From positions 1-54,847 of the forward strand of contig CALGYY010000047.1 in the NCBI GenBank assembly GCA_937934705.1: a DNA stretch of 54,847 nt, in the 5' to 3' direction. This stretch comes from an uncultured Bacteroidota bacterium (GTDB lineage: Bacteria > Bacteroidota > Bacteroidia > Bacteroidales > CAIWKO01). The translations under genes and the position numbers were made by a program. Below the pieces are notes generated by a model. It was not told the DNA's origin, searched no databases, and was given only the letters and a program-made list of their open reading frames with translations. Positions within the stretch are counted from its first letter, which is position 1. Each line of letters opens with the position of its first letter. This document shows positions 30,300 through 45,171 of this stretch, one piece after another.

Positions 30300-31364
30300 T
30301 CAGACGCTTTTAATATGAAGCGGTGAGGCCGGGGAGCCCATTGATTCGCCGTTTGTTCCCGTGTACTTTTGATCCGGGTCAAAGGTAATCCCGATTTTCT
30401 CCAGAATGGGCTCAACTGCTACCTGATGTAATTGCAGGCCCATGTCCCAGGGATCATATCCCAGCAGCAGACCGGCCAGTTCTTCATAGGTCAGCACCGG
30501 TATGCCGTAACCGTTTTCCCCATAGGTCTTACTTTCCATTTCTGCAATTACATATTGCCAGCGGTCGAGGAAATAGGTGCAGCCAGGACAATTGGCAATA
30601 ATCACATCCGGACGATAGGGTTCCATTGAATCAAATTTGCGCTTTGAATTGGTGATGGAATAACCCCGGTTGGATTTCAGCAGGTATTGTCGGAATCCAA
30701 AGCCACAGCAGTGCCTTCGTTCCGGATAATCTACCTGTTCGCCACCCCAGGCATCTGTCAAACCTGCCAGAACGTAAGGATACTCCGCCCCTCCTACACC
30801 TTTTTCCGGGAATATCTTGGCATAATGGCAGCCGATGTGATCCACCACCCTGATGGGTTTGCCGTCGATCTGATTCTTCAGGTAATAGCGAAATTGCTTT
30901 TCGATGTCGAGTCTGAACTTGTAAATAATATCGCTGGTGTGAACCAGGTTTTCAGGTATTTCAAAGCGTTTTCCGCAAGAGCGGTACAGGATATCCCTTG
31001 CCTTTTTTTCCGTATCCGGAAAATGCTTCCATGTTTCGAGCACCTCGGTGTAAATCCCGAATGAGGTAACACAGGAGCAGACAAAATTCCGGTACCCGGC
31101 TTCTGTCATCAGGGCAAACTGCCGGGCCACCACCGACATGGTGGTTTCCATGGGAATCAGTCCCGAATGATAGGCTATTCCGGTGCAGCTCGTTTGTTTC
31201 GGATCATCAAAAATATCTTTATGCAGAACATCTCTTAGGATTTTCATAAAGAGATCTTCAGCTGCCGGAAAGAAATTCTGGCGGATACAACTCCGTGCGA
31301 AGTAGTAATGATCATCTGCAATTTCCTTCTGGTAGCGTTCCCAGTTTTCGTTCTTATTCATCAT
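30300..31364 (-). CDS. hdrB: Heterodisulfide reductase subunit B-like protein (CCG-domain)
   Basis: The ORF is open to 31469 but overlaps hdrC. Candidate starts are 31409, 31379 and 31364. The C-terminal half has a full CCG-domain pattern (GCHY...HCCGFG...NCPGC). The N-terminal half is degenerate (SCTG, VCSC). Confidence 0.8.
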   Translation of the reverse strand: MMNKNENWERYQKEIADDHYYFARSCIRQNFFPAAEDLFMKILRDVLHKDIFDDPKQTSCTGIAYHSGLIPMETTMSVVARQFALMTEAGYRNFVCSCVTSFGIYTEVLETWKHFPDTEKKARDILYRSCGKRFEIPENLVHTSDIIYKFRLDIEKQFRYYLKNQIDGKPIRVVDHIGCHYAKIFPEKGVGGAEYPYVLAGLTDAWGGEQVDYPERRHCCGFGFRQYLLKSNRGYSITNSKRKFDSMEPYRPDVIIANCPGCTYFLDRWQYVIAEMESKTYGENGYGIPVLTYEELAGLLLGYDPWDMGLQLHQVAVEPILEKIGITFDPDQKYTGTNGESMGSPASPLHIKSV

Positions 31365-32061
31365 TTTTCCCGGCTTCATTTCCATGGTAGAGTCTGTTGA
31401 AATATTCATCTTTCCCTTCTCCGAAACGGGAACCTGTCTTACGGGCATATTCCTCCGATGCGGCTTCAATCTTTTCGAAGCGCTTCATGGCGCCGCTTTC
31501 TTCGAATATTTGCCGGAGCTCATTCATCGTAACCTCATCGATGTTCCGCAGTGCCCCTGCCCTGTCCATCTTATAGCTGGCTCCGAGTCTTTCCAATATT
31601 GCTGATCTGTGATCGAGAAACCACTGCCACACGGGTCCCTGTTCCGGATACATATCGAGGCTTATTTCATCAATATAAATACAATAGCCGTATTCAAGCA
31701 AGTGTTCGCCAATGGTCCGCTTCAAAGCAAGTTGTTTACGCCCCTGCCCGCTATCAGTGAAAAAACCTCCTTCGATGGATAAGGCGCGCAAAGCCTGTAT
31801 GATGTAGCAAGGAGTGTTACCCCTCGGGCAGCGGGTTTTGCATGACAGACATTCGCCGCACATCCATATGGTGTCAGAGCGCAGTAATTGTTCGAGAGCT
31901 GCTTCATCCTTTTGCTGCACGAGGTCAATGATCATTCTGGGGTCGTAATCACTGACTGCGGCGGCAGGACAAACGGCGGTACAGGTGCCGCAGTTGAAAC
32001 AGGCTTTAAGCCCTTCTGTGTATCGCGGATCCTGTTCCAGTTTCTGATAGAGTGTTTCCAT
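31354..32061 (-). CDS. hdrC: Heterodisulfide reductase subunit C-like 2x[4Fe-4S] protein
   Basis: 235 aa. CFNCGTCTAVCP and CGECLSCKTRCP motifs with HdrC-like spacing and a helical C-terminal extension. Confidence 0.8.
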   Translation of the reverse strand: METLYQKLEQDPRYTEGLKACFNCGTCTAVCPAAAVSDYDPRMIIDLVQQKDEAALEQLLRSDTIWMCGECLSCKTRCPRGNTPCYIIQALRALSIEGGFFTDSGQGRKQLALKRTIGEHLLEYGYCIYIDEISLDMYPEQGPVWQWFLDHRSAILERLGASYKMDRAGALRNIDEVTMNELRQIFEESGAMKRFEKIEAASEEYARKTGSRFGEGKDEYFNRLYHGNEAGKNDE

Positions 32062-32333
32062 TACTTCTGAATGCGTTTCTGTTTAATGGTGTGCCAGCTG
32101 ATGGCATCAGCAGGGCAGGTTTCGATACAGAGACCGCAGGAATTGCAGTGTTCGTAGATAAACACGAGATAATCAGGGTGGCAATTCACCTCAAGGGAAA
32201 TGCAATATTTCATACATTTTGCACATTGACTGCTCCCGGTCCTGACGATGGCCTGCTGAGGGCATGCTGCGATACAGGTTCCGCACTGGGTACAGAGCAG
32301 GGGGTTCAGTTCAGGTATCTTTTCCTGTTTCAT
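32061..32333 (-). CDS. 2x[4Fe-4S] ferredoxin
   Basis: 90 aa. CTQCGTCIAACP and CNSCGLCIETCP motifs plus extra Cys (CAKCMKYC). Confidence 0.8.
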   Translation of the reverse strand: MKQEKIPELNPLLCTQCGTCIAACPQQAIVRTGSSQCAKCMKYCISLEVNCHPDYLVFIYEHCNSCGLCIETCPADAISWHTIKQKRIQK

Positions 32334-33198
32334 GTCTGTTTTTCATTAATTGATCATACATATTCAAAAGTTTTTTTGATAAGCCGGATCCGGGCAAAAA
32401 CTCGGGTATACTTTTACCCGCGACCATGGCGTGCGTAAAACTCGCGTCGAAGGGAATCCGTCCGAGTAAAAGCCAGTTGTTCTCCAGGCATTCCGTCTCG
32501 ATCTCCCGGTCAGCCATAGTGTTCAGATCAGCTTTATTAATAATGACGGACACCCTGCTTTTTGTTGAATTGACCACTTTCATGACCCTTCTGAAATCAG
32601 CAAGCCCGGAAAGACTGGCTTCAGTGACCACAACCACCTGGTCCACTCCCGTGATGGTGCTGATCACCGGGCATCCGGTTCCCGGTGGCCCATCAAGTAT
32701 GATCAGGGGGAGTTTGTTTCTCAGGGATTCAGCTTTCGCCTTTTCGCGTACCAGGCTGACCAGTTTGCCCGAGTTTTCCTCCCCGGGTGCCAGGCGCCCG
32801 TATACGAGAGTTCCGTAGCGGAAGTCACCCGTAAAGAGGCGGCTGCGGTTTGCCGGGTCCATGGTGATGGCTTGTTCGGGGCAAAGGTGAGCGCATAAGC
32901 GGCATCCTTCACATTTCAGCGGATCGACAATGTAGTCCGGACCGGAAGTCATCACTGCCCCGAAACGGCAGTGTTGATGGCATATGCCGCATGATAAACA
33001 GCGATCAGCCATGATGCGGGCCTTATAACCCGATATATAGATTTCCTCCTCTCTGTGAAGCGGGTTAAACAGCAGGTACTGGTTCGCCGCATCCACATCA
33101 CAATCCGCCAGAACGAGCCGCCCGGCAGCAGTAGCCAATGCGGCAGCGATGCTCGATTTTCCGCTCCCTCCTTTACCGCTGATGACTGCTATTTCCAT
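32311..33198 (-). CDS. MinD/ParA-superfamily P-loop ATPase with inserted 4Fe-4S ferredoxin domain
   Basis: 295 aa. Deviant Walker A SGKGGSGKSS, Cys motifs CLSCGICHQHC and CEGCRLCAHLCP, and DGPPGTGCPV. Confidence 0.85.
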   Translation of the reverse strand: MEIAVISGKGGSGKSSIAAALATAAGRLVLADCDVDAANQYLLFNPLHREEEIYISGYKARIMADRCLSCGICHQHCRFGAVMTSGPDYIVDPLKCEGCRLCAHLCPEQAITMDPANRSRLFTGDFRYGTLVYGRLAPGEENSGKLVSLVREKAKAESLRNKLPLIILDGPPGTGCPVISTITGVDQVVVVTEASLSGLADFRRVMKVVNSTKSRVSVIINKADLNTMADREIETECLENNWLLLGRIPFDASFTHAMVAGKSIPEFLPGSGLSKKLLNMYDQLMKNRHETGKDT

Positions 33199-34049
33199 TT
33201 CTGCACGAATTGAGAGATCAGTTTTCTGAAATCATTCATGATTGCAGGGTGTGACTGAATGCTGAGACTGCCTCTGGCATAATTCGCTGCAATGCCCGCA
33301 TCATATGGAATGCGCATCAGCAGGGGAATTTTCCGCTCAGTGATGTACTTCATCATATCTTCAGTGCCGGTATCGCATCGGTTGATGATGAGCCCGTATG
33401 GTTTCCCTATTTCATTGAGGGTATCGATGCTCTGGCGGAGGTCGCTCAATCCGAAAGGAGTAGGTTCAGCGACAAGGATTACAAAATCCGCGGCGGAAAC
33501 TGTGTGAATAAAAGGGCAGGATGTTCCGGGAGGGGCGTCGAGGATATGCCATTCTGTATCCGGATCAGCAGAACTGATGGCCTGACGGATAACAGGAACA
33601 GGTGACATGGTCCCGGCATGGGTTCTTCCTTCAATGATGACTGTATTGTGATTCCAGCTGTGAACATTAACCCGGCCGGTTTCCCTGTAATCTTCCTTTA
33701 CGGCAGCGGTGTGACATGCATCGATACATGCTCCGCATGAATGGCAAAGTTCCGGTATGATATGAATCATCCCTCCCGGGGGTAAATAGAAAACTGCGTG
33801 GTACTGGCACCATTCAAAACAGCGTCCGCAGAAATCACATTCATCACTGACAATCCGTGGACAGAGCTGGTTCACCGGGATACTCTTTATTTGCGGGGCT
33901 TTAAAAAACAGCAGGCAATCCGGGGCTTCTGCGTCACAATCAGTAAGTGTAACCCGCAAGCCCTTTTCAGCAGCCAGGGCAAAAAGATGAGTTGAGACCA
34001 GGGTTTTGCCCGTTCCTCCCTTTCCGCTGGCCACTGCGAGGGTAAACAT
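33189..34049 (-). CDS. MinD/ParA-superfamily P-loop ATPase with inserted 4Fe-4S ferredoxin domain (paralog)
   Basis: 286 aa. SGKGGTGKT, CDFCGRCFEWC, CHSCGACIDAC and DAPPGTSCPF. Confidence 0.85.
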   Translation of the reverse strand: MFTLAVASGKGGTGKTLVSTHLFALAAEKGLRVTLTDCDAEAPDCLLFFKAPQIKSIPVNQLCPRIVSDECDFCGRCFEWCQYHAVFYLPPGGMIHIIPELCHSCGACIDACHTAAVKEDYRETGRVNVHSWNHNTVIIEGRTHAGTMSPVPVIRQAISSADPDTEWHILDAPPGTSCPFIHTVSAADFVILVAEPTPFGLSDLRQSIDTLNEIGKPYGLIINRCDTGTEDMMKYITERKIPLLMRIPYDAGIAANYARGSLSIQSHPAIMNDFRKLISQFVQKWK

Positions 34050-34053: not shown

Positions 34054-34491
34054 TCAGTCGTATTTGAGCCGTGTTTCCTCGTCAGCCAGAGCAGGTGCTA
34101 TCAGGCCCTGCCAGTGCCGTGTTTTCCATGTGCCGAGAGCAGCATGTGTAAGGTGGTATTTCTGCGGAATCGGGTGGGTTCCGAAAATCACTTCCAATCC
34201 GAATTTCTCACGAATGTAGCGTTCAAAATAATCGAGCCTTGGACAAGGCGGATAGCCCACCAGACAGCCCGTGGCAAAGTGAATTTTGCTGATCCCGTTT
34301 TTCTTCATCTCTTCCGGAGCATATTCAACATTTCCGCCGGGACACCCCCCGCAGTTTGCGTAAGCAGCAATTTCCACTTCCTCTCCTTTGTATATGGAGA
34401 AAGCGCCTTCCCTTTCCCTGAGTGCCCTGAAGCATTTGCCCCCTGCACAATCGCGGTAACGGTCACAAATGATCACGCCGATTTTAATCAT
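34054..34491 (-). CDS. CGGC-domain protein
   Basis: The track ORF starts at 34512. The Met at 34491 (MIKIGVIICDRYRDCAGGKC) fits the family N-terminus. The eponymous ANCGGCPG motif is present. Confidence 0.8.
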   Translation of the reverse strand: MIKIGVIICDRYRDCAGGKCFRALREREGAFSIYKGEEVEIAAYANCGGCPGGNVEYAPEEMKKNGISKIHFATGCLVGYPPCPRLDYFERYIREKFGLEVIFGTHPIPQKYHLTHAALGTWKTRHWQGLIAPALADEETRLKYD

Positions 34492-34501: not shown

Positions 34502-35350
34502 TTATTGAGCACGATATACTAAAGCAGAACCGACCGGAGCGTGAACACGTTCTGCGATGACATCACACTTCACCATCAGCAGGAAGAAGATTCTCGGATC
34601 CTTTTTATCGATCAGTCCCTCAAGATTGCCTTGTCCCTTCGAAATGATCAGGTCAGCAGTTTCGAAATGATGAAGAAAACCCTTTCCGGATTTGCTGAGG
34701 ATCACAGAGGGGGCGTCATATCCTGTAGATATGATATCTGCCACCACATGCATTTCCGTTTCTTTGGCATCTTCCAGAGTTACATCATTAATTACAGGAC
34801 CTCCCCTTACCGCAAATGTCACGTTGGGGTGCATCATCATTTCGATCAGCAGCTTGTCGAAAACGATTTCTCCGGCATTGTCGCCAAGGTACAATATCTT
34901 TTCCGCTGAGGCGATTTCCTTACGGAGGGCATCTGATTCATCCCTGAAGAAATCATTTTGCATGACCTCTGTAATGGTTTTCTCTGTGTCGAATTCAGAT
35001 AAGGCTCCGTAATCCATGATATTCCCGGCCACTGCCAGTCGCAACGCCATACTGAAAGGGTCCGCGGAATTTAACACGCGGGGTTTCCATCTTTCATAGA
35101 GCTCCATGGCCACCATATTACTTTGCATCTTTTCAAGGGTGAAAGGATCCTGAATCCCTTGCAGGCGGCAGAGATAATGATACAGCTCCCTTTGCACCTC
35201 CGGACTGCCGGGGCAGGGTTCCCTTTTCATGATTTCTGAAAAGAAGGCAGAAAACTCCTGTATCTGATTTTCTGTAAGAGTAAAGCGGTTTTTCAGGCGC
35301 CCGTAACTTCGGCTGAAGCAATCAGCACAGCGCGGATCCAGTCTGCTCAT
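34502..35350 (-). CDS. DUF89 / ARMT1-like damage-control phosphatase family protein
   Basis: The ORF is open to 35437 but overlaps nifX-like by 86 bp. The Met at 35350 lies 1 nt after the upstream stop. Motifs LGDNAGEIVFDKLL and IISKGQGNLEGL. Confidence 0.8.
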   Translation of the reverse strand: MSRLDPRCADCFSRSYGRLKNRFTLTENQIQEFSAFFSEIMKREPCPGSPEVQRELYHYLCRLQGIQDPFTLEKMQSNMVAMELYERWKPRVLNSADPFSMALRLAVAGNIMDYGALSEFDTEKTITEVMQNDFFRDESDALRKEIASAEKILYLGDNAGEIVFDKLLIEMMMHPNVTFAVRGGPVINDVTLEDAKETEMHVVADIISTGYDAPSVILSKSGKGFLHHFETADLIISKGQGNLEGLIDKKDPRIFFLLMVKCDVIAERVHAPVGSALVYRAQ

Positions 35351-35351: not shown

Positions 35352-35690
35352 TCAGTGGTCGCAATAATTGGATTCAAGCTTGAGTGAGCCGTCAAGAAAG
35401 GCCTGAACAAGCTCCTTTGCACTTTGTATCGGGGCACCTACAAAAACATTGATCTTTTGTTCCTTAAAAAGGTCGATGGCTCTTTGGCCCATACCTCCGG
35501 CAATCACGTCCGTAACACCATACTGGGCAATCCAGCGCGGATAGAGTCCGGGCTGATGCTCCGGTGGTGTTACATGAATTTCGGCACCCGCAACTCCGTT
35601 ATCTACCGTGATGATCGCGAAATTCTCACAATGTCCGAAATGGGGACAAAGCACCCTGTTTTCCAATGGAACAGCAATTTTCTTTTGCAT
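35352..35690 (-). CDS. NifX/NifB-C-terminal type (dinitrogenase Fe-Mo cofactor family) cluster-carrier protein
   Basis: 112 aa. MQKKIAVPLENRVLCPHFGHCENFAIITVD and GVTDVIAGGMGQRAIDLF are typical of this small-domain family. Confidence 0.85.
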   Translation of the reverse strand: MQKKIAVPLENRVLCPHFGHCENFAIITVDNGVAGAEIHVTPPEHQPGLYPRWIAQYGVTDVIAGGMGQRAIDLFKEQKINVFVGAPIQSAKELVQAFLDGSLKLESNYCDH

Positions 35691-35753
35691 GCATTAAATG
35701 TTTGAATGTTAAAAAAAGGGAGAGGGAGGGGGCAAAAGCCCCCGCCCGGGGAC

Positions 35754-35993
35754 TTATTCAGTCCCTCTGAAACGGTTCCTGCGGCCGGTTCCGCGACCAC
35801 GGGCACAAACCCTAAGACCGAAGCCATGTCCCCGTCCACCACCGTCCTTTCTACGCCCTCTTCCCTGAAAAACACCAGAAACTTCAGCATCCTGCTGATT
35901 TGAAGGGCTGCAAATAATTCCTGTGCAGCGTCCCATTTTGCGACCGGTCATGGGACCCTCCCCGGCCGGACCGCGTTGATCGAAATTTGGCAT
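35754..35993 (-). CDS. DUF5320 family protein (Arg/Gly-rich)
   Basis: 79 aa. MPNFDQRGPAGEGPMTGRKMGRC N-terminus followed by an RG-rich tail, the pattern I associate with DUF5320. Confidence 0.7.
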   Translation of the reverse strand: MPNFDQRGPAGEGPMTGRKMGRCTGIICSPSNQQDAEVSGVFQGRGRRKDGGGRGHGFGLRVCARGRGTGRRNRFRGTE

Positions 35994-36007: not shown

Positions 36008-36328
36008 TCAGTTGTGATCGAGTAAATCAATCACCTCCTGAATAGTTTTATCTTCTGTTTTCATGACGATCATTTGAATTTTCAGGCTATCGAGCAGAGA
36101 TTTTATCTTGATCCCGAACTCGCCTGAAACGATCTTCTTCACCCCTTTTGATGCCAGGAAGCGCACGGAAGAGGGACCTGCGCCTTCTTCTGCTTCCTTG
36201 TTGGGATTGGGCATGATTTCAACCGATTTTAGCTCCGTATCATAAATCACAAAATAGGAGCATCTGCCAAAACGCCCGTCAATTGTGCTGTTTAGATCCT
36301 TTCCTGTACTCGTGATGGCTGTTTTCAT
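36008..36328 (-). CDS. NifX/NifB-C-terminal type cluster-carrier protein (paralog)
   Basis: 106 aa. IDGRFGRCSYFVIYD and GVKKIVSGEFGIKIKSLL motifs. Confidence 0.85.
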   Translation of the reverse strand: MKTAITSTGKDLNSTIDGRFGRCSYFVIYDTELKSVEIMPNPNKEAEEGAGPSSVRFLASKGVKKIVSGEFGIKIKSLLDSLKIQMIVMKTEDKTIQEVIDLLDHN

Positions 36329-36340: not shown

Positions 36341-36823
36341 TTATGGATTCATCTGCCCCCGCCTTAATCTTCTTCTCCTGCAGGATTTCTCCTGAATTTC
36401 TTCCGGCACTTCTGTATAGTTGGAAACGCCTGAATGACCACAGAGAGGGCACTCCTCTACAGAACTGGCCTTATCCGGGTGATTGAAAAAACAACCACAG
36501 CCCTCGCAGGTATACCACTCACTGTCGAAGAAGATCTTCCCGCCCTCGATAATGATCTGTTTCCCGTTCACAAAAGCGTCTGCAATTTTCTGCAGAGCGC
36601 GGGCATAAATTCTGGTGAGCGTTGGTCTTGACACTTCCATGGCCAGGGCTGCCTCAACCTGACTGAAACCCTTGTGATCGCAAAGCCTCAATGCCTCATA
36701 TTCCTCAAAATGCAGAAACACCTTCTCCCGGGTCAAAGCCCTGTCAGAAGCTCCGTAAGGTTTAAATCCTGCAATAAGGGGCGGATCACTGATCTTTCTG
36801 AGTCTTTTTGGTCTGGGACACAT
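36341..36823 (-). CDS. DUF134 (UPF0251) predicted DNA-binding protein with C-terminal zinc ribbon
   Basis: 160 aa. MCPRPKRLRKISDPPLIAGFKPYG, HTH-like EYEALRLCDHKGFSQVEAALAMEVSRPTLTRIYARA, then CEGCGC...CPLCGH. Confidence 0.85.
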   Translation of the reverse strand: MCPRPKRLRKISDPPLIAGFKPYGASDRALTREKVFLHFEEYEALRLCDHKGFSQVEAALAMEVSRPTLTRIYARALQKIADAFVNGKQIIIEGGKIFFDSEWYTCEGCGCFFNHPDKASSVEECPLCGHSGVSNYTEVPEEIQEKSCRRRRLRRGQMNP

Positions 36824-36827
36824 AATA

Positions 36828-36867
36828 TGAACATTTGTTCACCACAAAGGTAATGAACATTTGTTCA
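36828..36867 (-). promoter_or_regulatory. Twin operator: two identical 14-bp perfect palindromes TGAACAtTTGTTCA (TGAACA-TT-TGTTCA) flanking a TAccTTTG -7-type box
   Basis: tgaacatttgttca occurs at 36828-36841 and 36854-36867. On the - strand TACCTTTG (36845-36852) sits between them. The proximal palindrome ends 4 nt from the DUF134 ATG. Confidence 0.6.
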
Positions 36868-36905
36868 AATGCAAGAAAAAATATCATTTTTTTTCGCCGG
36901 GCCTT

Positions 36906-38095: not shown

Positions 38096-40078
38096 TCAGT
38101 TTTTCATTTTATAATTGAAGTAGGTGTCGCTCTCATCCATGCCGTCGGGCACAACGATCCCGTATTTGTTCATGGTCATCAGATGCCAGGTCACCAGGTC
38201 ACTGCTTTTGTTGATCTGCTTCGAAAGATCCGGTATATTCATTGGCCCTGAAGCAAGAGCTTCTTCAATCTCTTTCCAGAGCTGGGGATATTCCTTCATG
38301 GTTACGGCCGGGGCTTCTTCATTCTCTGTTGTGCTTTCCTGTTGTTTCTCACGCATCTCGACCTTCTCCATAAAACCATCAATCATGCTTTCGATCTCGA
38401 GATTGGTAAACTGTGCCAGTTCAATCGCGTCAGGCGGGCAAACCGGTGCACATATCCCGCATCCGGCACAGGTAGCATTATTCACAACCGCCACCTGTTT
38501 TCCCTGAAATTCGATCTGACGGATGGCATCGTAATCGCAGACCTCCGCGCACTTTCCGCACCAGGTGCAGGCTTCGCTGTTAACCCTGGCCACCACCGGA
38601 TCCAGCGAAATGGTCCCGCCTCCTAACAAGGCATTCATCTTGGCCGCGGCTGAAAGTGAGGATTCAACCGATTCTGTAATATTCCTCGGTCCCTGGCAAC
38701 TGCCGCCGATATACACGCCTTTGATCACCGTTTCCACCGGTTTCAGTTTGGGGTGGATTTCGTTGAAAAAACGATCGCTGCCAATGGGAATCTTAAAAAC
38801 GTCTGCAATGCTTCGACTGTCTTCCCTGGCGACGGCACCGGTAACCAGCACGACAAGATCCAGTGGAATTTCAATTTCTTCTTTCGATGTGAGATAGTCT
38901 TTTACTTTAACCAGGACCTGATCGCCAGCAGCCTCCACAAGCGGCGGTTCTTTTTCATCCCAGCGAATATAGATATCGCCCTGTTTTGAAGACTTCTCAT
39001 AAAGGATTTCCTGCTTCCCGTATGTCCGTATGTCGCGGAATAAATGCCATGCGGTCACATCCCCGTATTTTTCCTTTATCTTCAGTGAGGTATGTATAGC
39101 CGCACTGCAGCAAAAGCGCGAGCAGTATTTATTTTCCCCTTTTTTCTGGCGGTTTCCGACACAATAAATGAAACCCACCTGTCTCACCTTTTTGCCGTCC
39201 ACCACCAGCTCACCCTGCTCTTTCACCATACGGTCGAAATCCGGCAGTGTGACGATGCGCTTTGAACTTCCGTAAGCATATTCATTCTCCTTTGGCTGAT
39301 AGCTGTCCATCCCTGTTGCCACAAGAACGGAGCCCACATTCAGGCTCAGCTTTTCATCATTATCGCCTGTTCCGATGCTGACGCCAACGTGAAAATTTCC
39401 CAGGCTTCCGCTGACTTTCTCAACTGTCGCCCTTGTAAAAACAGTGATGCCGCTGTGCCTGCGGATCTCTTCCTGCAGGCGACCCGTCAGTTCGCTGCCG
39501 CTCTGCCCGCTCATGAATAAGCTGCCTGCCTGTGCCACACGGCCACCGGTCTGCGCTTCCTTTTCAATCAGGTACACCTGGTTCCCCATGCGTGCCAGAT
39601 CAATCGCGGCACGCATTCCGGCTACTCCGGCACCGATGACCAAAGCCGCCTTCACGACTGGAATCTCAATGTTCTCCAGAGACTCAGAATGTGATACCCG
39701 CTTGATTCCTGCACGGATGAGCCCCACAGCCTTTATGCTGGCTTCCTTTTTATTATCGGAATGTGGCCAGGAACATTGTTCCCTGATATTGACCTGTACA
39801 TAATTGGAGGGGTTCAGTTTTGCCCTTTCAGCCACTCCACGGAAAGTATGCAGGTGAAGCTTGGGTGAGCAGGAAGCCACAACGATCGCGTCCAGTTTGT
39901 GCTCTTCAATATCACTGACCATCTGCTTCTGGTTGGAATCGGCACAGGCGAACATGACATCCTTTGAGATCACCACACCCGTCTCTTCTGCAAGCATTTT
40001 ACCGAGTTCTTCAACATCAACATAATCGGAGATGTTGCCCCCGCAATGACAGATATATACTCCTATTCTCTGTTTCAT
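38096..40078 (-). CDS. hdrA: HdrA-type FAD/FeS flavoprotein (QmoB-position) with C-terminal 2x[4Fe-4S] and an extra helical tail
   Basis: The ORF is open to 40243 but overlaps the upstream gene. The Met at 40078 gives MKQRIGVYICHCGGNISDYVD. FAD fold ALVIGAGVAGMRAAIDLA, HdrA signature YCVGNRQKKGENKYCSRFCC, CTWCGKCAEVC and CAGCGICAPVCP. Confidence 0.85.
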   Translation of the reverse strand: MKQRIGVYICHCGGNISDYVDVEELGKMLAEETGVVISKDVMFACADSNQKQMVSDIEEHKLDAIVVASCSPKLHLHTFRGVAERAKLNPSNYVQVNIREQCSWPHSDNKKEASIKAVGLIRAGIKRVSHSESLENIEIPVVKAALVIGAGVAGMRAAIDLARMGNQVYLIEKEAQTGGRVAQAGSLFMSGQSGSELTGRLQEEIRRHSGITVFTRATVEKVSGSLGNFHVGVSIGTGDNDEKLSLNVGSVLVATGMDSYQPKENEYAYGSSKRIVTLPDFDRMVKEQGELVVDGKKVRQVGFIYCVGNRQKKGENKYCSRFCCSAAIHTSLKIKEKYGDVTAWHLFRDIRTYGKQEILYEKSSKQGDIYIRWDEKEPPLVEAAGDQVLVKVKDYLTSKEEIEIPLDLVVLVTGAVAREDSRSIADVFKIPIGSDRFFNEIHPKLKPVETVIKGVYIGGSCQGPRNITESVESSLSAAAKMNALLGGGTISLDPVVARVNSEACTWCGKCAEVCDYDAIRQIEFQGKQVAVVNNATCAGCGICAPVCPPDAIELAQFTNLEIESMIDGFMEKVEMREKQQESTTENEEAPAVTMKEYPQLWKEIEEALASGPMNIPDLSKQINKSSDLVTWHLMTMNKYGIVVPDGMDESDTYFNYKMKN

Positions 40079-40103: not shown

Positions 40104-42899
40104 TCAGGATCCGCAGTGACAGCCGCAGCTTTCCTGGTCAACACATGAATTATTGAGGTAGGCTGCCACTTCTGATGCCGCGCAACCTGCCGATAAGATG
40201 GAATCCGGAATATCTTTCGGGCCGGCAGCACTGCCGGCCACAAAAACGCCTTCGATACTGGTCAGGGCCGGATGGATCAGTTCGTCGGCTTGTCTGACAA
40301 AGTTAAATTCATCCAGTTCGAGCGTCTCATTGCTGAAGAACTTTGCCGTATCCTTATTGGGAACTACACCTACCGAAAGCACCACCAGATCATGTTTTGC
40401 CTCTTTCAGCACTCCGGTAGTGATATCCTCATATCGCAGTATCACATCCCCGTTGGGATTCGAGTCATCTTTAGCACGAATCTTAGCAACTTTTCCTTTA
40501 ATAAAATTAACCCCCATGGATTTTGCTTCCTGGAAGAATTCCTCGTAGCCTTTGCCAAATGCCCGGATGTCGATATAGTAGATGGTAATATCTGCCATGG
40601 GTAAAGCTCCCATCAGCAGTTGAGCCTGTTTGATGGAATACATGCAGCAGATCTGGGAGCAGATCGGGTTGTTGGCACAGTCATCCCCGCAACCCATATG
40701 GTTTTCGATACTGCGGTCGCGGGAACCCGCACAAAGTACATAGGCAATATTGTCAGGGACCTTGCCGTCGCCGGGGCGGAGAACGCTGTTGTAAGGGCGT
40801 GTGGGTGCGATCAGGCGATCCATCTGCAAGGAGTCGATCACGTTGCCGAGGCGGGCGTACCCCAGTTCGGGTTTGCCTTCCGGCTTAAAGAGTTTATATC
40901 CCGAAGCCACAATTACGCTTTTGACCTCTGCATCCAGAATTTCCGGTTTCTGCGAGAAATCGATCGCATAGGCCGGGCAGGCGGTCACGCATTGATGGCA
41001 CTCCCGGCAATTGGAACAGTCGAGGCAGCGGTTTGCACTTTGCAGAACTTCGGCCTCGGTGAAAGTCAGTTCCACATCCCTGAAATCGCGGACCCTTTCT
41101 TCTGCCGGCCTGAATCCGTGGTGCAGGGCGGGAAGGATATTGACCTTCGGTCTGTTCAGTACCTGCTGTTTATCCACAGCCGGCAGCTTTTCCCCGAATG
41201 CTCCCATCGGAAAATCTTCTTTCATCAGGAAGCTGTGCATATAAAATGCTGCTTTCTTTCCGCTTCCAATGGCTTCAATGATGGTGCTCGCGCCATTCTT
41301 CGAATCACCACCGGCAAAAACCCAGGGAACTTTTGTCTGGTGGGTTTCAGGATCGGCCTGAATGGTGCCGTCTTTTCCGACACCAATGGGGGTTTTAACA
41401 GACGATGTTGTCGGACGCAAGCCAATGGCTTCAATGACGAAATCAACCTCTTCCCAGTATTCTGAACCTTCCTCAGGAACCGGAAGCCTGCGGCCTTTTT
41501 CATCGGCCTTATCGAGTTTCATGCGGATCAGCTGAACCTTCTTCAGCTTGCCATTTTCGCCACTGAAGCGGACCGGGTTGCGCAACTGCATCAACTCAAC
41601 GCCTTCCTCAAGGGCCTCTTCGATCTCAATATCCCAGGCCGGCATCTCTGAACGGCTCCGGCGGTAAACAACACTCACTTTTGAGGCACCGAGTCTCAGG
41701 GCTGTACGGGCGGAATCCATAGCCGTATTTCCGCCTCCGATCACCATCACACGCTTCCCTTTCAGATCAGCCGGAGTGCCGATATTGGCCTCTCTCAGAA
41801 AATCCAGGCAGGAGACCACACCCCTCAAATCTGCACCTTCGACGCGTAATTGGCTCGTTTCATGGGTGCCGACCGCCACAAATACGGCATCGTACTTCCC
41901 TTCTTCCTTCAGGGCTTCCAGGTCATCCACCCGGGTGTTCAGCTGTATCTGCACCCCAAGGGCAGTGATATTCTGAATATCGCGGTCAACAACGCTCTTC
42001 GGAAGGCGGTATTCCGGAAGCGTCAGTTTCAGCATTCCCCCGGCCTGTGATGCGGCCTCATAAATTTTCACGGAGTGACCCTTCTGCGCCAGAAAATACG
42101 CGGCGGTTAATCCTGCCGGACCAGAGCCGATAACGGCGACTTTCTTTCCTGTGAAAGGCGGCATCTCTGCTTTGGGTGCTTCAGGGTATTGCTTATAATA
42201 TTCCTCTGCGAAGAATCTTTTAATCCTGCGGATATCCACGTGCTGATCCTGTGTATCCCGTGTACAGGCTTTCTGACAGGGAGCATAACAGGCCCGGCCC
42301 AGGCTTCCTGGAAGGGGTGCGTCTTCCATGTGAAGCTTCATGGCATCCTCATACTGGCGGTTTCTCACCAATGTGATATATCCGTATGGCTTCACGCCTC
42401 CCGGACATTCATTGATACAGGGTGCAGAAACATCCTGCCGGTCGATGGAAGCGATACGGGGATTGGCCAGGCTGAAGGGAATATAGGCTACTTTACGTCC
42501 GGCCAGGTGAGCGTTGTAATCATCGCTGCGCACCTCAGGGCATACCACTTCACATTCCCCGCATCCCGTACAGTTTTCCTGTATTACATAGCGGGGATTG
42601 CGGATGATACTGGCATTGAACACCCCGTTCTGCTTCACGATCCCGTGAATATCGCTGTTGAGCGAAAGCGTAATATTCGGGTGACGGGCTGTTTCCGACA
42701 TTTTAGGAGTAGTGATACAGGCGGCACAATCGAGTGTCGGAAAAACCTTGCTCAGTTGTATCATCTTTCCCCCGATGGACAGACCTTTCTCCACCAGCAG
42801 CACCTGATAATTCATGTTGGCGAGACTTAGTGCGGCTTCCTGTCCGGCAATCCCGCCGCCGATCACCATCACATCATACTTATTCCGGTTTGTTGACAT
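40104..42899 (-). CDS. HdrA-type flavoprotein with an embedded GltD/NfnB-type NAD(P)H oxidoreductase module (HdrL-like)
   Basis: 931 aa. N-terminal YDVMVIGGGIAGQEAALSLA and CTGCGECEVVCP. Insert with GRACYAPCQKAC, KKVAVIGSGPAGLTAAYFLAQKGHSV, MVIGGGNTAMDSART and VFAGGD. The chain then resumes with HdrA features CLDCSNCRECHQCVTACP and LCAGSRD...CSQICC. Confidence 0.85.
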   Translation of the reverse strand: MSTNRNKYDVMVIGGGIAGQEAALSLANMNYQVLLVEKGLSIGGKMIQLSKVFPTLDCAACITTPKMSETARHPNITLSLNSDIHGIVKQNGVFNASIIRNPRYVIQENCTGCGECEVVCPEVRSDDYNAHLAGRKVAYIPFSLANPRIASIDRQDVSAPCINECPGGVKPYGYITLVRNRQYEDAMKLHMEDAPLPGSLGRACYAPCQKACTRDTQDQHVDIRRIKRFFAEEYYKQYPEAPKAEMPPFTGKKVAVIGSGPAGLTAAYFLAQKGHSVKIYEAASQAGGMLKLTLPEYRLPKSVVDRDIQNITALGVQIQLNTRVDDLEALKEEGKYDAVFVAVGTHETSQLRVEGADLRGVVSCLDFLREANIGTPADLKGKRVMVIGGGNTAMDSARTALRLGASKVSVVYRRSRSEMPAWDIEIEEALEEGVELMQLRNPVRFSGENGKLKKVQLIRMKLDKADEKGRRLPVPEEGSEYWEEVDFVIEAIGLRPTTSSVKTPIGVGKDGTIQADPETHQTKVPWVFAGGDSKNGASTIIEAIGSGKKAAFYMHSFLMKEDFPMGAFGEKLPAVDKQQVLNRPKVNILPALHHGFRPAEERVRDFRDVELTFTEAEVLQSANRCLDCSNCRECHQCVTACPAYAIDFSQKPEILDAEVKSVIVASGYKLFKPEGKPELGYARLGNVIDSLQMDRLIAPTRPYNSVLRPGDGKVPDNIAYVLCAGSRDRSIENHMGCGDDCANNPICSQICCMYSIKQAQLLMGALPMADITIYYIDIRAFGKGYEEFFQEAKSMGVNFIKGKVAKIRAKDDSNPNGDVILRYEDITTGVLKEAKHDLVVLSVGVVPNKDTAKFFSNETLELDEFNFVRQADELIHPALTSIEGVFVAGSAAGPKDIPDSILSAGCAASEVAAYLNNSCVDQESCGCHCGS

Positions 42900-42918: not shown

Positions 42919-43380
42919 CTAGGACGCCTTATTATTCAGCTCAGCCTGTATGCTTCCGATCTCAGATAAGATACGGCTGAAATTGTCCATGTGACTGGCA
43001 AAGGGTTCCGCGCATACGGAACAAATGGCTGCCATGCGGATACGTTTGGGATTGATCCCCTGCTCTTTCATCATTGATTGCGCGTGGTTGATGAGGTCGT
43101 TGGTGCGGTCGGGACAACTGGCGCTGTAAGAACATTCATGTCCGTCGGCTGCGATGAAAACCCCGTCAAACCCCTGCCTGTAGGCATGCATGATCCATCG
43201 CGGTTTGATCCCCGAAGAGCATGGCATACTGATCACATAAACCGAGGGAGAATAATGAATTTTTCGCAGGCCGGCCTGGTCAATGCCCGGATCTGAGATC
43301 TTGTCAGTGGAGAAGACCAGGATTTTTGGTTGAAAACTGTTGGTGGTGGACATATTCGCTTTATGATTTGGACAATACAA
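42919..43380 (-). CDS. MvhD/FlpD-like (methyl-viologen-reducing hydrogenase delta subunit family) protein
   Basis: 153 aa; the start may be the Met at 43353. KILVFSTDKIS...VISMPCSSGIKPRWIMHAYRQGFDGVFIAADGHECSY aligns by eye with the MvhD fold but has an altered Cys pattern. Confidence 0.7.
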   Translation of the reverse strand: MYCPNHKANMSTTNSFQPKILVFSTDKISDPGIDQAGLRKIHYSPSVYVISMPCSSGIKPRWIMHAYRQGFDGVFIAADGHECSYSASCPDRTNDLINHAQSMMKEQGINPKRIRMAAICSVCAEPFASHMDNFSRILSEIGSIQAELNNKAS

Positions 43381-43441: not shown

Positions 43442-43699
43442 TTATGCTTTTTTCAGAAAAAGTCTGGAATAGCTGTCTTCCTCCACGATGCCAAGGAACT
43501 GGTGTTCCATTTTTTCGCACCATTTCGGGATGTCGTGTTTGGTTCCTTCGTCAGACGAAAGGATCTCCATGATCTCGCCGGATTCAATATCTCCGATGGC
43601 TTTTTTGGCTGCAAGCAGTGGTCCGGGGCATGCTGTTCCGCGGGCGTCAACAAGTTTGTTGGAGGTGAGGTTTCTGAGTTCTTCGGGTGTCATAATCAT
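43442..43699 (-). CDS. tusA: TusA/SirA-family sulfurtransferase
   Basis: 85 aa. DARGTACPGPLLAAKKAI active-site Cys motif and a two-layer alpha/beta-sized protein. Confidence 0.85.
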   Translation of the reverse strand: MIMTPEELRNLTSNKLVDARGTACPGPLLAAKKAIGDIESGEIMEILSSDEGTKHDIPKWCEKMEHQFLGIVEEDSYSRLFLKKA

Positions 43700-43728
43700 T
43701 ATTTTTATGTGATTTTACTTTTTCGTGA

Positions 43729-44298
43729 TCAGATAAAGAGCTGTACTTTGCTTTCGCTGGCATCGGCCAGGAAAGTGGCCACACCGCAGATGTTCATATG
43801 AGGATAGTCGATCATTTCTTCTTTTTTGAAGCCCATGAGGTTCATCGACATTTCGCAGATGTTGATTTCGACGCCCAGTTCGCCGGCAGTGGTGAACATT
43901 TCAGGGAGTGAGGCCACCTTATGTTTCTTCATGATGCCTTTGATCATGGATGTTCCCATTCCGCCCATATTCATTTTGCTCAGCTTAACCTTACGACTTC
44001 CTTTGGGAAGCATCATCCCGAACATCTTTTCCATGAAGGTTTTTCCGCTCACCTTTTTCTTCGGGTCACGCAGGGCTGCAATTGCCCAGAAAGTGAAGAA
44101 GAGTTTCACCTTCATATCATAAGCGGCAGCGCCTGTGGAAATAATCATGGCAGCCAGGATCTTGTCGAGATCGCCGGAAAAAACGACCATCGATAACTGG
44201 TCTTTGGTTCCCTTTTCCATTTTTCCGATCTTCTGCTGCAGTTCCTGTATCTGTTTTTCAAGTTCAGCACTCATAGGTTTGATTTTAAGTTTAAACAA
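43729..44298 (-). CDS. DsrE/DsrF/DrsH-like family protein
   Basis: 189 aa; the start may be the Met at 44274. MVVFSGDLDKILAAMIISTGAAAYDMKVKLFFTFW...LSKMNMGGMGTSMIKGIM...ICEMSMNLMGFKKEE matches the DrsE_2-type family usually paired with TusA. Confidence 0.8.
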   Translation of the reverse strand: MFKLKIKPMSAELEKQIQELQQKIGKMEKGTKDQLSMVVFSGDLDKILAAMIISTGAAAYDMKVKLFFTFWAIAALRDPKKKVSGKTFMEKMFGMMLPKGSRKVKLSKMNMGGMGTSMIKGIMKKHKVASLPEMFTTAGELGVEINICEMSMNLMGFKKEEMIDYPHMNICGVATFLADASESKVQLFI

Positions 44299-44303
44299 AA
44301 GTA
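44296..44303 (-). promoter_or_regulatory. Candidate -7 box (TActTTTG) for the dsrE-like operon
   Basis: The reverse complement of caaaagta matches the Bacteroidota TAnnTTTG consensus. It is only compatible with the internal start at 44274. Confidence 0.3.
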
Positions 44304-44355: not shown

Positions 44356-44375
44356 GGTGTGATTTATATCACACC
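44356..44375. promoter_or_regulatory. Perfect 20-bp palindrome containing a consensus CRP-type site TGTGA-N6-TCACA
   Basis: GGTGTGATttatATCACACC has perfect 8-bp arms. Core TGTGA at 44358-44362 and TCACA at 44369-44373. It lies in the 192-bp divergent region between the dsrE-like operon and the Crp/Fnr gene. Confidence 0.65.
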
Positions 44376-44391
44376 TGTTCCAAAAAATGAT

Positions 44392-44399
44392 TATCTTTG
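44392..44399 (+). promoter_or_regulatory. Candidate -7 box (TAtcTTTG) for the Crp/Fnr regulator gene
   Basis: Matches TAnnTTTG about 90 bp upstream of the ATG at 44491. The centre of the CRP-type palindrome lies about 30 bp upstream of it. Confidence 0.4.
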
Positions 44400-44490
44400 T
44401 TAATCAGCAAAATGAGAATTCCGCGGCACCCTTCTGCCTGTTTCTGTGCGCAAGACTCCCCGGTATTTCTTTTAAAAAAAGATCAGTCCT

Positions 44491-45171
44491 ATGGCAACTC
44501 ACCTTTGTACTTCCTGCCCGCTCAAATCTCCTGCTGCCCGCAACCTGACAGATGAGGAACTCGGGATACTTGAAAAGAACAGCGCCTTGGTGCATTTTAA
44601 GAAAGGAGAGATCATTTTCCGGGAGGATGCATTATCGACCAATGTGGCCTATCTGCGGACCGGTATTGCCAAGATTCACAAAAGGGGGCCAGCTGCGGAT
44701 AAGATCCTCAGGGTTGTGAAAGCGCCCACCTATCTGGGTATCCCGACCAGTATGGGAGAAAAGATCAACCAGTTTTCTGCGACTGCACTGGTGGAAACAA
44801 GTGTCTGTTTTATCGACACCAATCTGTTCCGCAATTTTATTTTCCAGAACGGTGCATTTGCTTACGAAATCATCATGGAGCTTTGCCGTCATGAGCTCAA
44901 TGACTACCAGCGTTTCACTTCACAGTCCCAAAAACAGGTTCCGGGTATTGTTGCCGAGACCCTGCTTTGTTTCTCGGAAAAGATTTTCGCCAACACCCGT
45001 TTTCAGTTTCCGCTCACCCGCGGAGAGATCGGGGACCTCGTAGGAACCTCCCGCGAAAGTGTAAGCAGGGTTCTCACCGATCTGGCCGGTGAAGGGATTA
45101 TTACCTATGACGCCAGGGAGATCACGATTCTGGATCCGGAGCGTTTGAAGCAGATCAGTGATAAGGGTTGA
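44491..45171 (+). CDS. Crp/Fnr family transcriptional regulator
   Basis: 226 aa. cNMP-binding-like beta-barrel (FKKGEIIFREDA), C-terminal HTH (LTRGEIGDLVGTSRESVSRVLTDL) and an N-terminal CTSC pair. Confidence 0.85.
   Translation: MATHLCTSCPLKSPAARNLTDEELGILEKNSALVHFKKGEIIFREDALSTNVAYLRTGIAKIHKRGPAADKILRVVKAPTYLGIPTSMGEKINQFSATALVETSVCFIDTNLFRNFIFQNGAFAYEIIMELCRHELNDYQRFTSQSQKQVPGIVAETLLCFSEKIFANTRFQFPLTRGEIGDLVGTSRESVSRVLTDLAGEGIITYDAREITILDPERLKQISDKG

Follow-up and report, generated by a model that had tools for sequence, protein, structure and literature searches.

The DNA analysed here is a 54,847-nt stretch from an uncultured Bacteroidota bacterium of the order Bacteroidales (contig CALGYY010000047.1 of assembly GCA_937934705.1), hereafter the window, in which 17 open reading frames (ORFs), all on the minus strand, run from position 44298 down to position 30300. 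The encoded proteins are related to sulfur carriers, to the flavoproteins and membrane subunit of Qmo and Hdr complexes, and to proteins of Fe-S and metal-cluster type, as collected in Table 1. An earlier note, prepared from the sequence alone, had proposed a single supercomplex for this run. The ORF list and the Pfam matches bear out the run itself, its gaps and the Crp/Fnr-family gene transcribed divergently from it. Across 80 genome loci and 82 HdrB-anchored loci, however, the proposed supercomplex separates into two parts, and the best explanation as a whole, to which a probability of about 0.6 is given, is that the 17 genes represent two adjacent modules, each conserved and regulated on its own. 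Module A extends from the DsrE-like gene to the QmoC-like gene, and module B from DUF134 to HdrB.

Table 1. Genes, domains and regulatory signals of the two modules, with positions in the window and the basis of each assignment
Feature	Position	Strand	Basis or remark
Crp/Fnr-family regulator with N-terminal CxxC motif, divergent from module A	44491..45171	+	Pfam cNMP_binding, HTH_Crp_2 and Crp
CRP-type palindrome TGTGAtttataTCACA, perfect, Crp/DsrE intergenic region	44358..44373	.	sole 0-mismatch copy in the window
Bacteroidetes -7 box TAnnTTTG upstream of module A	44296..44303	-	motif scan
Module A: DsrE-like, TusA, MvhD, QmoA-like flavoprotein, HdrA-winged helix, QmoC-like	44274-36906	-	Pfam and comparative loci
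DsrE-family (DrsE_2) sulfur-carrier protein, 181 aa	43729..44274	-	PF13686, 4.7e-49
TusA sulfur carrier, CPGP active-site motif	43442..43699	-	PF01206, 8.4e-22
MvhD-like [2Fe-2S] electron-transfer protein	42919..43380	-	PF02662 FlpD, 3.6e-27
QmoA-like HdrA-type flavoprotein, 931 aa, with NfnB/GltD-like insert ("HdrL" architecture)	40104..42899	-	Pfam, NCBIfam PRK12771 and HdrA2, PDB
HdrA/QmoB-like flavoprotein (HdrA2), 660 aa: N-terminal Cys-cluster domain, FAD, 2x[4Fe-4S], C-terminal winged helix	38096..40078	-	NCBIfam HdrA2, 512 bits; PDB 5ODC_A, 2.6e-115
Winged-helix domain of HdrA2, ~90 aa	about 38096-38365	-	separate ORF in relatives
QmoC-like membrane subunit: HdrC-like 2x[4Fe-4S] N-terminal domain and 5-6 transmembrane helices	36906..38090	-	NCBIfam qmoC, 210.9 bits, cut-off 300
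Promoter/operator region of module B, 82-bp QmoC/DUF134 gap	36824..36905	-	-7 box and twin palindrome
-7 box TAccTTTG, module B	36845-36852	-	between the two TGAACAnnTGTTCA copies
Palindrome TGAACAnnTGTTCA, two exact copies 26 bp apart	36828-36841; 36854-36867	-	only copies in the window, 0.17 expected
Module B: DUF134, NifX1, DUF5320, NifX2, DUF89, CGGC, 2x MinD-ferredoxin, ferredoxin, HdrC, HdrB	36823-30300	-	Pfam and comparative loci
DUF134 protein, 160 aa: helix-turn-helix (sigma-70 region-4-like) core and C-terminal Cys4 motif	36341..36823	-	PF02001
NifX1, NifX-like (Nitro_FeMo-Co), orange-protein/MTH1175/TM1290 type	36008..36328	-	PF02579
DUF5320, small Gly/Arg-rich protein	35754..35993	-	PF17253; recurrent in module-B loci
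GC-rich hairpin with U7 run inside module B, DUF5320/NifX2 gap	35711..35747	-	-31.2 kcal/mol, z = -3.64, 0/200 shuffles as stable
NifX2, second NifX-like (Di-Nase) protein	35352..35690	-	PF02579; PDB PH0822/TM1816 type
DUF89/ARMT1-like damage-control phosphatase family protein	34502..35350	-	PF01937, 6.5e-57; NCBIfam 173.6 bits, cut-off 440
CGGC-domain protein	34054..34491	-	PF08821, 1e-28
Pair of paralogous MinD/ParA-type ATPases, both carrying a 2x[4Fe-4S] ferredoxin insertion	33189-34049; 32311-33198	-	CbiA/ParA and Fer4
Small 2x[4Fe-4S] ferredoxin	32061..32333	-	Fer4 families
HdrC-like protein	31354-32061	-	NCBIfam HdrC, 98 bits, below cut-off
HdrB-like protein, 354 aa	30300-31364	-	NCBIfam HdrB, 132 bits, below cut-off; CCG protein

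With the most plausible start codons, the junctions within the run are overlaps or gaps of 4-29 bp, apart from the three largest gaps at QmoC/DUF134 (82 bp), DUF5320/NifX2 (63 bp) and TusA/MvhD (61 bp). Five starts lie downstream of that of the longest ORF (DsrE, 44274; HdrA2, 40078; DUF89, 35350; CGGC, 34491; HdrB, 31364), and the corrected starts match the public annotation of identical contigs recovered in other samples, in which DsrE, HdrA2 and HdrB have the lengths listed in Table 1. Profile searches of every ORF agreed with the family calls of the earlier note. In module A, the Pfam assignments are DrsE_2, TusA, FlpD/MvhD, an HdrA-like protein with embedded Fer4_20 and Pyr_redox_2, a further HdrA-like protein and a QmoC-like protein with Fer4 and transmembrane segments. 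In module B, they are DUF134, two Nitro_FeMo-Co proteins, DUF5320, ARMT1-like/DUF89, CGGC, two CbiA/ParA proteins with Fer4, a ferredoxin, an HdrC-like protein and a CCG protein. The best homologues are found in metagenome-assembled genomes of Bacteroidales and Bacteroidota.

The conservation of module A was followed by a QmoC profile scan of one genome per GTDB species, in which at least 598 relatives were confirmed and the top 80 loci were examined together with 10 kb on either side. In 51 of these 80 loci, termed class A, the order is [DsrE]-TusA-MvhD-QmoA-like-HdrA-[winged helix]-QmoC, and the hosts belong to at least seven named lineages, including Bacteroidota, Krumholzibacteriota, Verrucomicrobia, Planctomycetota/Phycisphaerae, Chloroflexi (Anaerolineae) and Desulfobacterales. 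TusA lies directly upstream of MvhD in at least 35 of the 51 loci, a DsrE-family gene is present in 37 and MvhD itself in 40. Further recurrent neighbours are regulators (a divergent Crp in Bacteroidota, a sigma-54 activator, ArsR and LysR), rhodanese and a YeeE/YedE-type sulfur transporter. The active-site residues of the two sulfur carriers are well preserved: Cys24, Pro25 and Pro27 of TusA are shared by 39 of 39 homologues, and 40 of 41 homologues of the DsrE-family protein retain a particular Cys. The genes apr, sat, dsr and lbpA and those for hydrogenase are absent from the window, and none of them recurs beside module A in the 51 class-A loci. The absence of the known Hdr and Qmo partners described earlier is thus borne out for the window and for these loci.

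It can be observed from the same loci that module A travels without module B. No module-B gene was found within 10 kb in 43 of the 51 class-A loci; among the class-A loci outside Bacteroidota, just two are exceptions. In the closest relative found, with a QmoC 76% identical to that of the window, a divergent Crp gene, DsrE, TusA, MvhD, HdrL, HdrA and QmoC are followed by thioredoxin and TonB receptors, with no module B. This comparison shows no conserved 17-gene unit: the block from DsrE to QmoC recurs alone in at least seven named lineages.

A complementary picture was obtained from loci anchored on HdrB, which comprised two genome contexts and 80 metagenome loci, with neighbours counted on the 53 loci of at least 6 kb. 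The typical order is DUF134, NifX, (DUF5320), NifX, DUF89, [radical S-adenosylmethionine protein], [peptide deformylase or Mrp-NUBPL], HdrC, HdrB, followed by [pyridine-nucleotide disulfide oxidoreductase or Cys/Met pyridoxal phosphate (PLP) enzyme], CGGC, MinD and MinD, where the bracketed neighbours were assigned by Pfam. At least one gene of the DUF134, NifX, DUF89, CGGC or MinD families accompanies HdrB in 47 of the 53 loci, and at least three do so in 30. Module A, in either orientation, was found within 10 kb in just 7 of the 53, and conversely only one of the 51 class-A loci has HdrCB at this distance or closer. The HdrCB pair therefore belongs to module B and is not a conserved partner of the HdrA/QmoC proteins. 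That TusA and DsrE are part of the HdrA/QmoC system, as had been suggested, is upheld by their conservation and by their retained catalytic Cys; HdrBC as its catalytic site is not upheld, because this pair travels with DUF134, NifX and MinD.

Separate regulation of the two modules is indicated by different signals at their upstream ends. Between the Crp and DsrE genes lies the perfect CRP-type palindrome TGTGAtttataTCACA, which is likely the operator for the Crp-family regulator. Perfect copies of this type adjoin Crp and/or DsrE in five related loci (L011, L096, L098, L107 and L143), a copy with one mismatch occurs in L026, and the divergent Crp homologue is likewise present at related Bacteroidota loci. 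The longest DsrE ORF begins with a TTG that overlaps the module-A -7 box, so that the DsrE start is placed at the ATG at 44274. On the minus strand between 30300 and 44600, TAnnTTTG matches five times, and only the two matches listed in Table 1 are intergenic, the second of them being in the 82-bp gap ahead of DUF134. There, it is located between two copies of a different palindrome, TGAACAnnTGTTCA.

The distribution of TGAACAnnTGTTCA follows module B closely. In 0.89 Mb of HdrB-anchored loci, 35 exact copies were counted against 0.17 in shuffled sequences, an enrichment of about 200-fold, with 32 of the copies in intergenic DNA. The QmoC-anchored loci, 1.29 Mb in total, contain only four copies, all in L002 and L003, both of which carry DUF134 clusters. 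The palindrome sits 18-46 bp upstream of DUF134 genes and is also found upstream of genes for HdrC, DUF89, DUF5320, metallo-beta-lactamase (MBL)-fold, DUF4405, CGGC and Cys/Met-PLP proteins. The 26-bp spacing of the twin copies is kept in L002, L083, L086 and L142. DUF134 is a candidate autoregulator of module B that would bind TGAACAnnTGTTCA. An alternative identity as an SOS box was considered on account of the GAAC-N4-GTTC core, which resembles the Gram-positive LexA box, and was rejected: the site adjoins DUF134 and orp genes, not repair genes. The SOS motifs published for Bacteroidetes are GGA-N5-TCC and CTAA-N5-TTAG. Within module B, the stable hairpin in the DUF5320/NifX2 gap could, from its predicted fold, terminate or attenuate transcription after DUF134-NifX-DUF5320. 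More general scans were uninformative, with 20 sigma-70 promoters against 16.6 in shuffles and 26 intrinsic terminators against 17.1, that is, without enrichment; the full Bacteroidetes promoter TTTG-N17-23-TAnnTTTG gave no match, and the -7 box alone is informative.

The most distinctive protein of module A is the 931-residue QmoA-like flavoprotein. It opens directly at the flavin adenine dinucleotide (FAD) GxGxxG motif and lacks the N-terminal Cys domain of HdrA, as does QmoA. An NAD(P)H-FAD-2[4Fe-4S] module of approximately 460 residues, at about residues 168-625, contains two Rossmann motifs and a Fer4_20 domain. In the PDB search, residues from about 149-155 to 640 align with the NfnB-type chains 9N5U, 4YLF and 5JCA, the NfnB-like parts of 9BOV and 8OH5 also align with the insert, and residues 624-919 align with the HdrA 5ODC. 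After the second Rossmann fold the insert has the sequence VVYRRS, a motif of NADPH binding in GltD/NfnB proteins. Homologues of approximately 434 residues align only to residues 1-167 and 626-917, with 56-63% identity; because these homologues match both ends alone, the NAD(P)H module is a clean insertion into a QmoA-like protein. Within class A, the inserted form of about 900 residues is restricted to four of about 50 loci (L003, L014, L036 and L079), and about 42 loci carry a QmoA-like form of approximately 430-450 residues. The long form is likewise present in two close relatives identified at the protein level (P0002 and P0010), and the HdrL fusion architecture as such is widespread, with dozens of 50%-identity clusters aligning across the whole query. 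The GltD/NfnB module noted earlier is thus present, but it is a minority insertion in module A.

The second flavoprotein, HdrA2, is encoded by two ORFs in many related loci. Its winged-helix part occurs as a standalone ORF of about 90 residues in 30 of them and is ArsR/HTH_5-like in 14 of 24 members. A DsrD-like identity of this domain was rejected, since no DsrD Pfam match was obtained, the domain being of generic ArsR/HTH_5 type, and no PDB match was better than E = 0.02. Selenocysteine in HdrA was likewise dismissed: the in-frame stops seen by tblastn are confined to the junction between HdrA core and winged helix, which is a gene boundary, and no selenocysteine codon aligned to a Cys. In the QmoC-like protein there are two Cys4 motifs, and five invariant His (H133, H241, H308, H347 and H366) are located in hydrophobic segments. 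The NCBIfam qmoC alignment spans profile positions 4-358 of 360, at a score below the cut-off. In seven loci with module A beside HdrCB (L086, L092, L096, L098, L107, L143 and L153), QmoC is 36-40% identical to that of the window and shorter (median 348 aa), and the flavoproteins, MvhD and TusA of the same loci are 55-89% identical to those of the window, which suggests that two QmoC subtypes are exchanged within module A.

A sister arrangement, class B, was found in 27 of the QmoC-anchored loci from Bacteroidales/Draconibacterium (L017, L023, L028-L032, L034-L035, L037-L045, L047, L049-L051, L055-L057, L059, L066 and L070). Here genes for QmoA-like, QmoC, HdrA and MvhD proteins come first, in this order, and those for both subunits of an [NiFe] hydrogenase (small, then large) and for a maturation protease of HycI type come next. 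Upstream lie hypE and hypF, and a third recurrent upstream gene appears HypD-like by reading of its sequence alone. TusA and DsrE are absent. From its gene content, class B looks like a membrane-anchored complex of Mvh hydrogenase and Qmo type. Because the same core is paired with a hydrogenase in class B, the HdrA/MvhD/QmoC core takes exchangeable input and output modules.

In module B, four Cys of DUF134 (C106, C109, C125 and C128) are invariant, and the confident core of its AlphaFold2 model (residues 35-90) superposes at 0.4-0.7 Å on extracytoplasmic function (ECF) sigma or sigma-70 region 4 and on DeoR DNA-binding domains. Many Bacteroidales homologues of DUF134 (P0393-P0510) have about 194 residues and a second Cys-rich tail, RCxDxCxCPxC...PCxxExCxxC, without counterpart in the protein of the window; the sequences of these tails suggest variable metal- or Fe-S-binding sensor modules. 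No paper on the function of DUF134 was found in the searchable literature. For NifX1, the PDB matches are 1RDU (3.7e-16), 1EO1 (1.5e-10) and the orange protein (ORP) of D. gigas, 2WFB (4.4e-7), TM1290 and MTH1175 thus being better matches than ORP. NifX2 most resembles the C-terminal domain of MrpORP (NCBIfam MrpORP 113.7 bits, cut-off 450, profile positions 264-365). As judged from these sequences, module B, found in Bacteroidales, is related to the orp (orange protein complex) cluster of Desulfovibrio, because of the NifX2-MrpORP score, the match of NifX1 to 2WFB and the pair of MinD-ferredoxin ATPases, which fits the description of Orp3 and Orp4. The co-encoded maturation cassette proposed earlier is therefore partly sustained: the gene set is of metallocluster and Fe-S type, yet it is a relative of an already described cluster and has its own -7 box and operator.

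The HdrB-like protein of module B is 72-79% identical across many Bacteroidales, a higher conservation than that of QmoC. Its N-terminal CCG domain is degenerate in comparison with methanogen HdrB, with CC changed to CT and CxxC to CxxS in a form invariant in 14 homologues, and its C-terminal CCG domain retains all five Cys. The small ferredoxin is also located upstream of HdrC in L081 and L107. In 12 HdrB-anchored loci (L082, L085 and ten others), the slot held by this ferredoxin in the window, directly upstream of HdrC, is occupied by a DUF4405 membrane protein, and HdrCB may be membrane-anchored in those genomes. A stand-alone Mrp/NUBPL gene occurs in 32 of the 82 HdrB-anchored related loci.

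The relation of module A to characterised complexes is closest for QmoABC, the quinone-interacting membrane-bound oxidoreductase of sulfate reducers. Both have a pair of HdrA-type flavoproteins, the QmoA-like one being without the N-terminal domain of HdrA, and an MvhD module; the QmoC-like subunit of module A has an HdrC-like Fe-S domain and a putative haem-b-type membrane domain. It differs in that aprBA and sat are absent from the window and from the recurrent neighbours of the 51 class-A loci, that MvhD is a separate upstream gene and not the C-terminus of QmoB, that HdrA2 ends in a winged helix, that TusA, the DsrE-family protein and the winged-helix protein are conserved, and that the QmoA-like subunit carries the NfnB-like insert. 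Type II Qmo has been seen in organisms with or without Dsr/Apr, and its role was left open (Neukirchen et al. 2023, PMC10504309). An HdrL-MvhD arrangement, in which an HdrA/glutamate-synthase fusion is encoded next to mvhD, is described for Desulfobacterium autotrophicum (PMC2702500). An HdrABC/HdrL locus occurs in Syntrophobacter fumaroxidans, and tandem hdrL/hdrA loci are known. The large HdrA with embedded GltD/NfnB-type NAD(P)H module beside mvhD is common to these and to the window; the described loci, however, are soluble and tied to dsrABC, fdh or hdrABC, whereas module A is QmoC-anchored, is accompanied by TusA/DsrE and has an insert that is optional. In NfnAB/SudAB, the NADH-dependent ferredoxin:NADP oxidoreductase, the NfnB-type chain with which the insert aligns is a separate subunit; here it is embedded in an HdrA-type flavoprotein, and an NfnA-type subunit is lacking. 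With MvhADG-HdrABC of methanogens, the locus has in common the HdrA-type FAD/Fe-S protein (5ODC, Table 1), MvhD, and HdrC- and HdrB-like proteins, and class B even has an Mvh-type [NiFe] hydrogenase. The window differs in having neither MvhAG hydrogenase nor Fdh and in possessing a QmoC membrane subunit instead; furthermore, two of the five Cys in the N-terminal CCG domain are missing from its HdrB, and HdrCB is not the partner of this HdrA by comparative genomics. The sulfur-oxidising, heterodisulfide-reductase-like sHdr-LbpA system also encodes Hdr-like proteins with TusA and DsrE-family sulfur transferases (PMC11094781), a combination that recurs here. It differs from the present loci in that lbpA and the set hdrC1B1A-hyp-hdrC2B2 are absent from the window and related loci, HdrBC is unlinked to TusA/DsrE, module A has a QmoC membrane subunit, and the hosts are anaerobic fermenters and sulfate reducers.

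For module B, the reference is the orp cluster of Desulfovibrio vulgaris Hildenborough, in which Orp3 and Orp4 are paralogous MinD-type ATPases with two [4Fe-4S] ferredoxin motifs (PMC6345978). This cluster comprises Orp3, Orp4, Orp5, Orp8 and MrpORP, and MrpORP, in which an Mrp/NBP35 P-loop domain is joined to a Di-Nase domain, passes Fe-S clusters to Orp3-Orp4-Orp8 in vitro. A further trait of ORP is its Mo/Cu-S heterometallic cluster. Two MinD-type 2x[4Fe-4S] ATPases (matched to Orp3 and Orp4 by description), an ORP-type NifX-like protein like Orp8, small Fe-S proteins and anaerobic hosts are shared. Differences are the lack of the Mrp-Di-Nase fusion in the window, where the Di-Nase part stands alone as NifX2; the gene order, which is one-directional, DUF134-led and under a palindromic operator, with no sigma-54 activator in the window, as opposed to divergent operons under sigma-54 and OrpR; and the additional genes for DUF134, DUF89, CGGC, DUF5320, ferredoxin and HdrCB.

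Taking these comparisons together, module A is most likely a membrane-anchored flavin/Fe-S complex of Qmo type under the control of the divergent Crp/Fnr-family regulator. QmoC, with a predicted di-haem b domain and 2[4Fe-4S], would connect the complex to the menaquinone pool by electron exchange, and the two HdrA-type flavoproteins and MvhD would provide the cytoplasmic electron path, possibly with flavin-based bifurcation or confurcation involving ferredoxin. In this lineage the inserted NfnB-like module would add an NAD(P)H site. Sulfane sulfur or thiosulfonate carried by TusA/DsrE may replace AprAB as the partner of module A. We infer that module A probably acts on TusA-bound sulfur, because TusA and DsrE are its only conserved partners that are not electron carriers, apart from the occasional rhodanese and YeeE. 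By analogy with ORP and MrpORP, module B could be an ATP-dependent system for handling Fe-S or heterometal clusters, in which the HdrCB pair, with its single intact CCG site, might supply a thiol/disulfide redox step. It is probably repressed by the DUF134 helix-turn-helix/Cys4 protein through the twin palindromic operator. In its full form, the proposal would make module A a hitherto unrecognised enzyme of energy metabolism, a menaquinone-linked TusA-persulfide (or thiosulfonate) reductase or oxidase of Qmo type, possibly bifurcating or confurcating. It would act in the cytoplasm of non-sulfate-reducing anaerobes from at least seven named lineages, and the variant of the present Bacteroidales lineage would be fed by NAD(P)H. 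DUF134 would sense metal or redox state and, via TGAACAnnTGTTCA, repress an orp/HdrCB regulon of Bacteroidales. Taken jointly, all of this is less likely than not.

Other explanations need to be weighed against the two-module reading. A single operon and a single system of all 17 genes would mean that an HdrA/QmoC assembly linked to NAD(P)H and quinone works on a TusA/DsrE persulfide with HdrBC as its catalytic part, and that the genes from DUF134 to MinD are its dedicated maturation genes. Canonical HdrA enzymes operate with HdrBC, and the genes of the window are co-directional with gaps of no more than 82 bp. Several observations of our own speak on this side and count against two independent modules. 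No convincing terminator was found after QmoC, where the fold is no stabler than that of shuffled sequence (z = +0.6), so that transcription of module A may continue into module B. Module-B genes are near 8 of the 51 class-A loci and none of the 27 class-B loci (Fisher p = 0.045), more often than chance would place them there; QmoC is followed directly by DUF89-HdrC-HdrB in L096 and L092 and by DUF134-HdrC-HdrB in L153, and in L168 module B begins two genes past QmoC. The functional side of our interpretation also has its weak points. Module A has no recognisable S-S catalytic site besides its flavins; the AlphaFold model of QmoC is of low confidence (predicted local distance difference test, pLDDT, 64.8), its fold matches to EtfD, HdrC and NarI being plausible and not significant; the function of the ORP complex was itself left unclear, with a role in cell division proposed; and 0 of the 17 proteins reaches the curated NCBIfam cut-off of its own family model. 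Besides qmoC, the scores and cut-offs are 132/450 for HdrB, 98/350 for HdrC, 62/210 for DsrE2 and 56/78 for TusA, and the proteins are, as their sequences indicate, relatives of characterised proteins outside those exact families, because all score below the cut-offs. Nevertheless, a single system is unlikely: the QmoC/DUF134 gap has an independent -7 box and operator pair, which differ from the CRP-type operator of module A, the closest relative and 43 of 51 module-A loci do without module B nearby, 46 of 53 HdrCB loci do without module A within 10 kb, HdrC bears the module-B operator in some of them, and the N-terminal CCG site of HdrB is degenerate. Since the modules do adjoin more often than chance, a looser functional link between them may exist, for instance in maturing an Fe-S-rich complex; the adjacency would equally fit an anaerobic redox island. 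An obligatory 17-gene system finds no support in it.

With the two modules accepted, their functions could still be others than those proposed. Module A might be a redox-balancing NAD(P)H/ferredoxin:menaquinone oxidoreductase with TusA and DsrE merely co-located, their own task being, for example, the thiolation of cofactors or tRNA, or the import of sulfur. In its favour, TusA serves several unrelated functions in cells, module A lacks CCG and an evident S-S catalytic site, the NfnB-like insert gives an NAD(P)H site, and in class B a hydrogenase accompanies this core, TusA/DsrE being absent. This appears rather improbable in view of TusA next to MvhD and DsrE in most class-A loci, with their catalytic Cys kept across at least seven lineages, and of rhodanese and YeeE/YedE as recurrent extra neighbours; moreover, most loci lack the NAD(P)H insert, so that NAD(P)H is not a general substrate. 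Similarly, module B might act in cell division or morphology, or belong to a regulon for oxidative stress or Fe-S repair, its adjacency to module A reflecting synteny in an anaerobic redox island. The proposed division role of the ORP complex, whose expression is off at raised redox potential, would fit, and genes for AhpC, rubrerythrin, thioredoxin, Fur, ferritin and flavodoxin are often near both modules in relatives, the neighbourhoods being rich in them. There is little probability in this explanation all the same: the loci of module B contain no division gene and are dominated by Fe-S and metal-cluster families (NifX-like, MinD-ferredoxin, Mrp/NUBPL, radical SAM, CGGC and HdrCB), and MrpORP transfers Fe-S clusters in vitro. 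The two-module reading, with a Qmo-type complex beside an orp-type cluster, is therefore preferred.

The genes flanking the run are housekeeping genes, as noted earlier (F-ATPase, Lnt, ferritin, Dxr, RseP, RecX, PrfB, SpoU methylase, M49 peptidase and PNP), and Rfam and tRNA scans of the window gave no matches. Between lnt and ferritin, two tandem paralogues of about 550 residues are encoded at 1974-3644 and 3647-5293 on the minus strand, with 29% identity over 460 residues (E = 3e-70) and no Pfam match. The F-type ATP synthase operon at 6003-11115, also on the minus strand, comprises subunits a, c, b, delta, alpha and gamma; it stops at gamma, ferritin being next, so that the beta and epsilon genes are not adjacent. 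ORFs without a Pfam match at E <= 1e-5 are located at 26453-28936 (plus strand, 827 aa), 22433-23419 (minus strand, 328 aa) and 20981-21601 (plus strand, 206 aa). At 45224-45249, a hairpin with an 11-bp stem and T-runs between the convergent genes for the Crp-family regulator and the M49 peptidase is likely a terminator for this pair.

The individual parts of the locus are of known kinds, namely HdrL-MvhD, Qmo including type II, and the orp cluster, and module A is an uncharacterised Qmo/HdrL variant; the locus as a whole is not the single novel supercomplex proposed earlier. No description was found in the searchable literature of the TusA/DsrE-MvhD-QmoA-like-HdrA-winged helix-QmoC unit and its NfnB-inserted variant, nor of HdrCB as a member of a Bacteroidales orp-like regulon, nor of the TGAACAnnTGTTCA operator. 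For annotation, the locus gives cause for caution, as a long co-directional run in one genome may be a lineage-specific juxtaposition and not one system. With module B, an orp-type cluster is placed in Bacteroidales, the highly conserved HdrCB pair is assigned to it, and a testable operator and a candidate regulator, DUF134, are provided. Qmo and Hdr complexes are central to the energy metabolism of anaerobes, and few of their partner combinations have been characterised so far. Module A, which recurs without Apr, Dsr and LbpA, points to protein-bound sulfur as the missing partner. If this is true, there would be cytoplasmic, quinone-linked sulfur turnover in abundant fermenters of sediments and digesters that are not counted as sulfur-cycling organisms.

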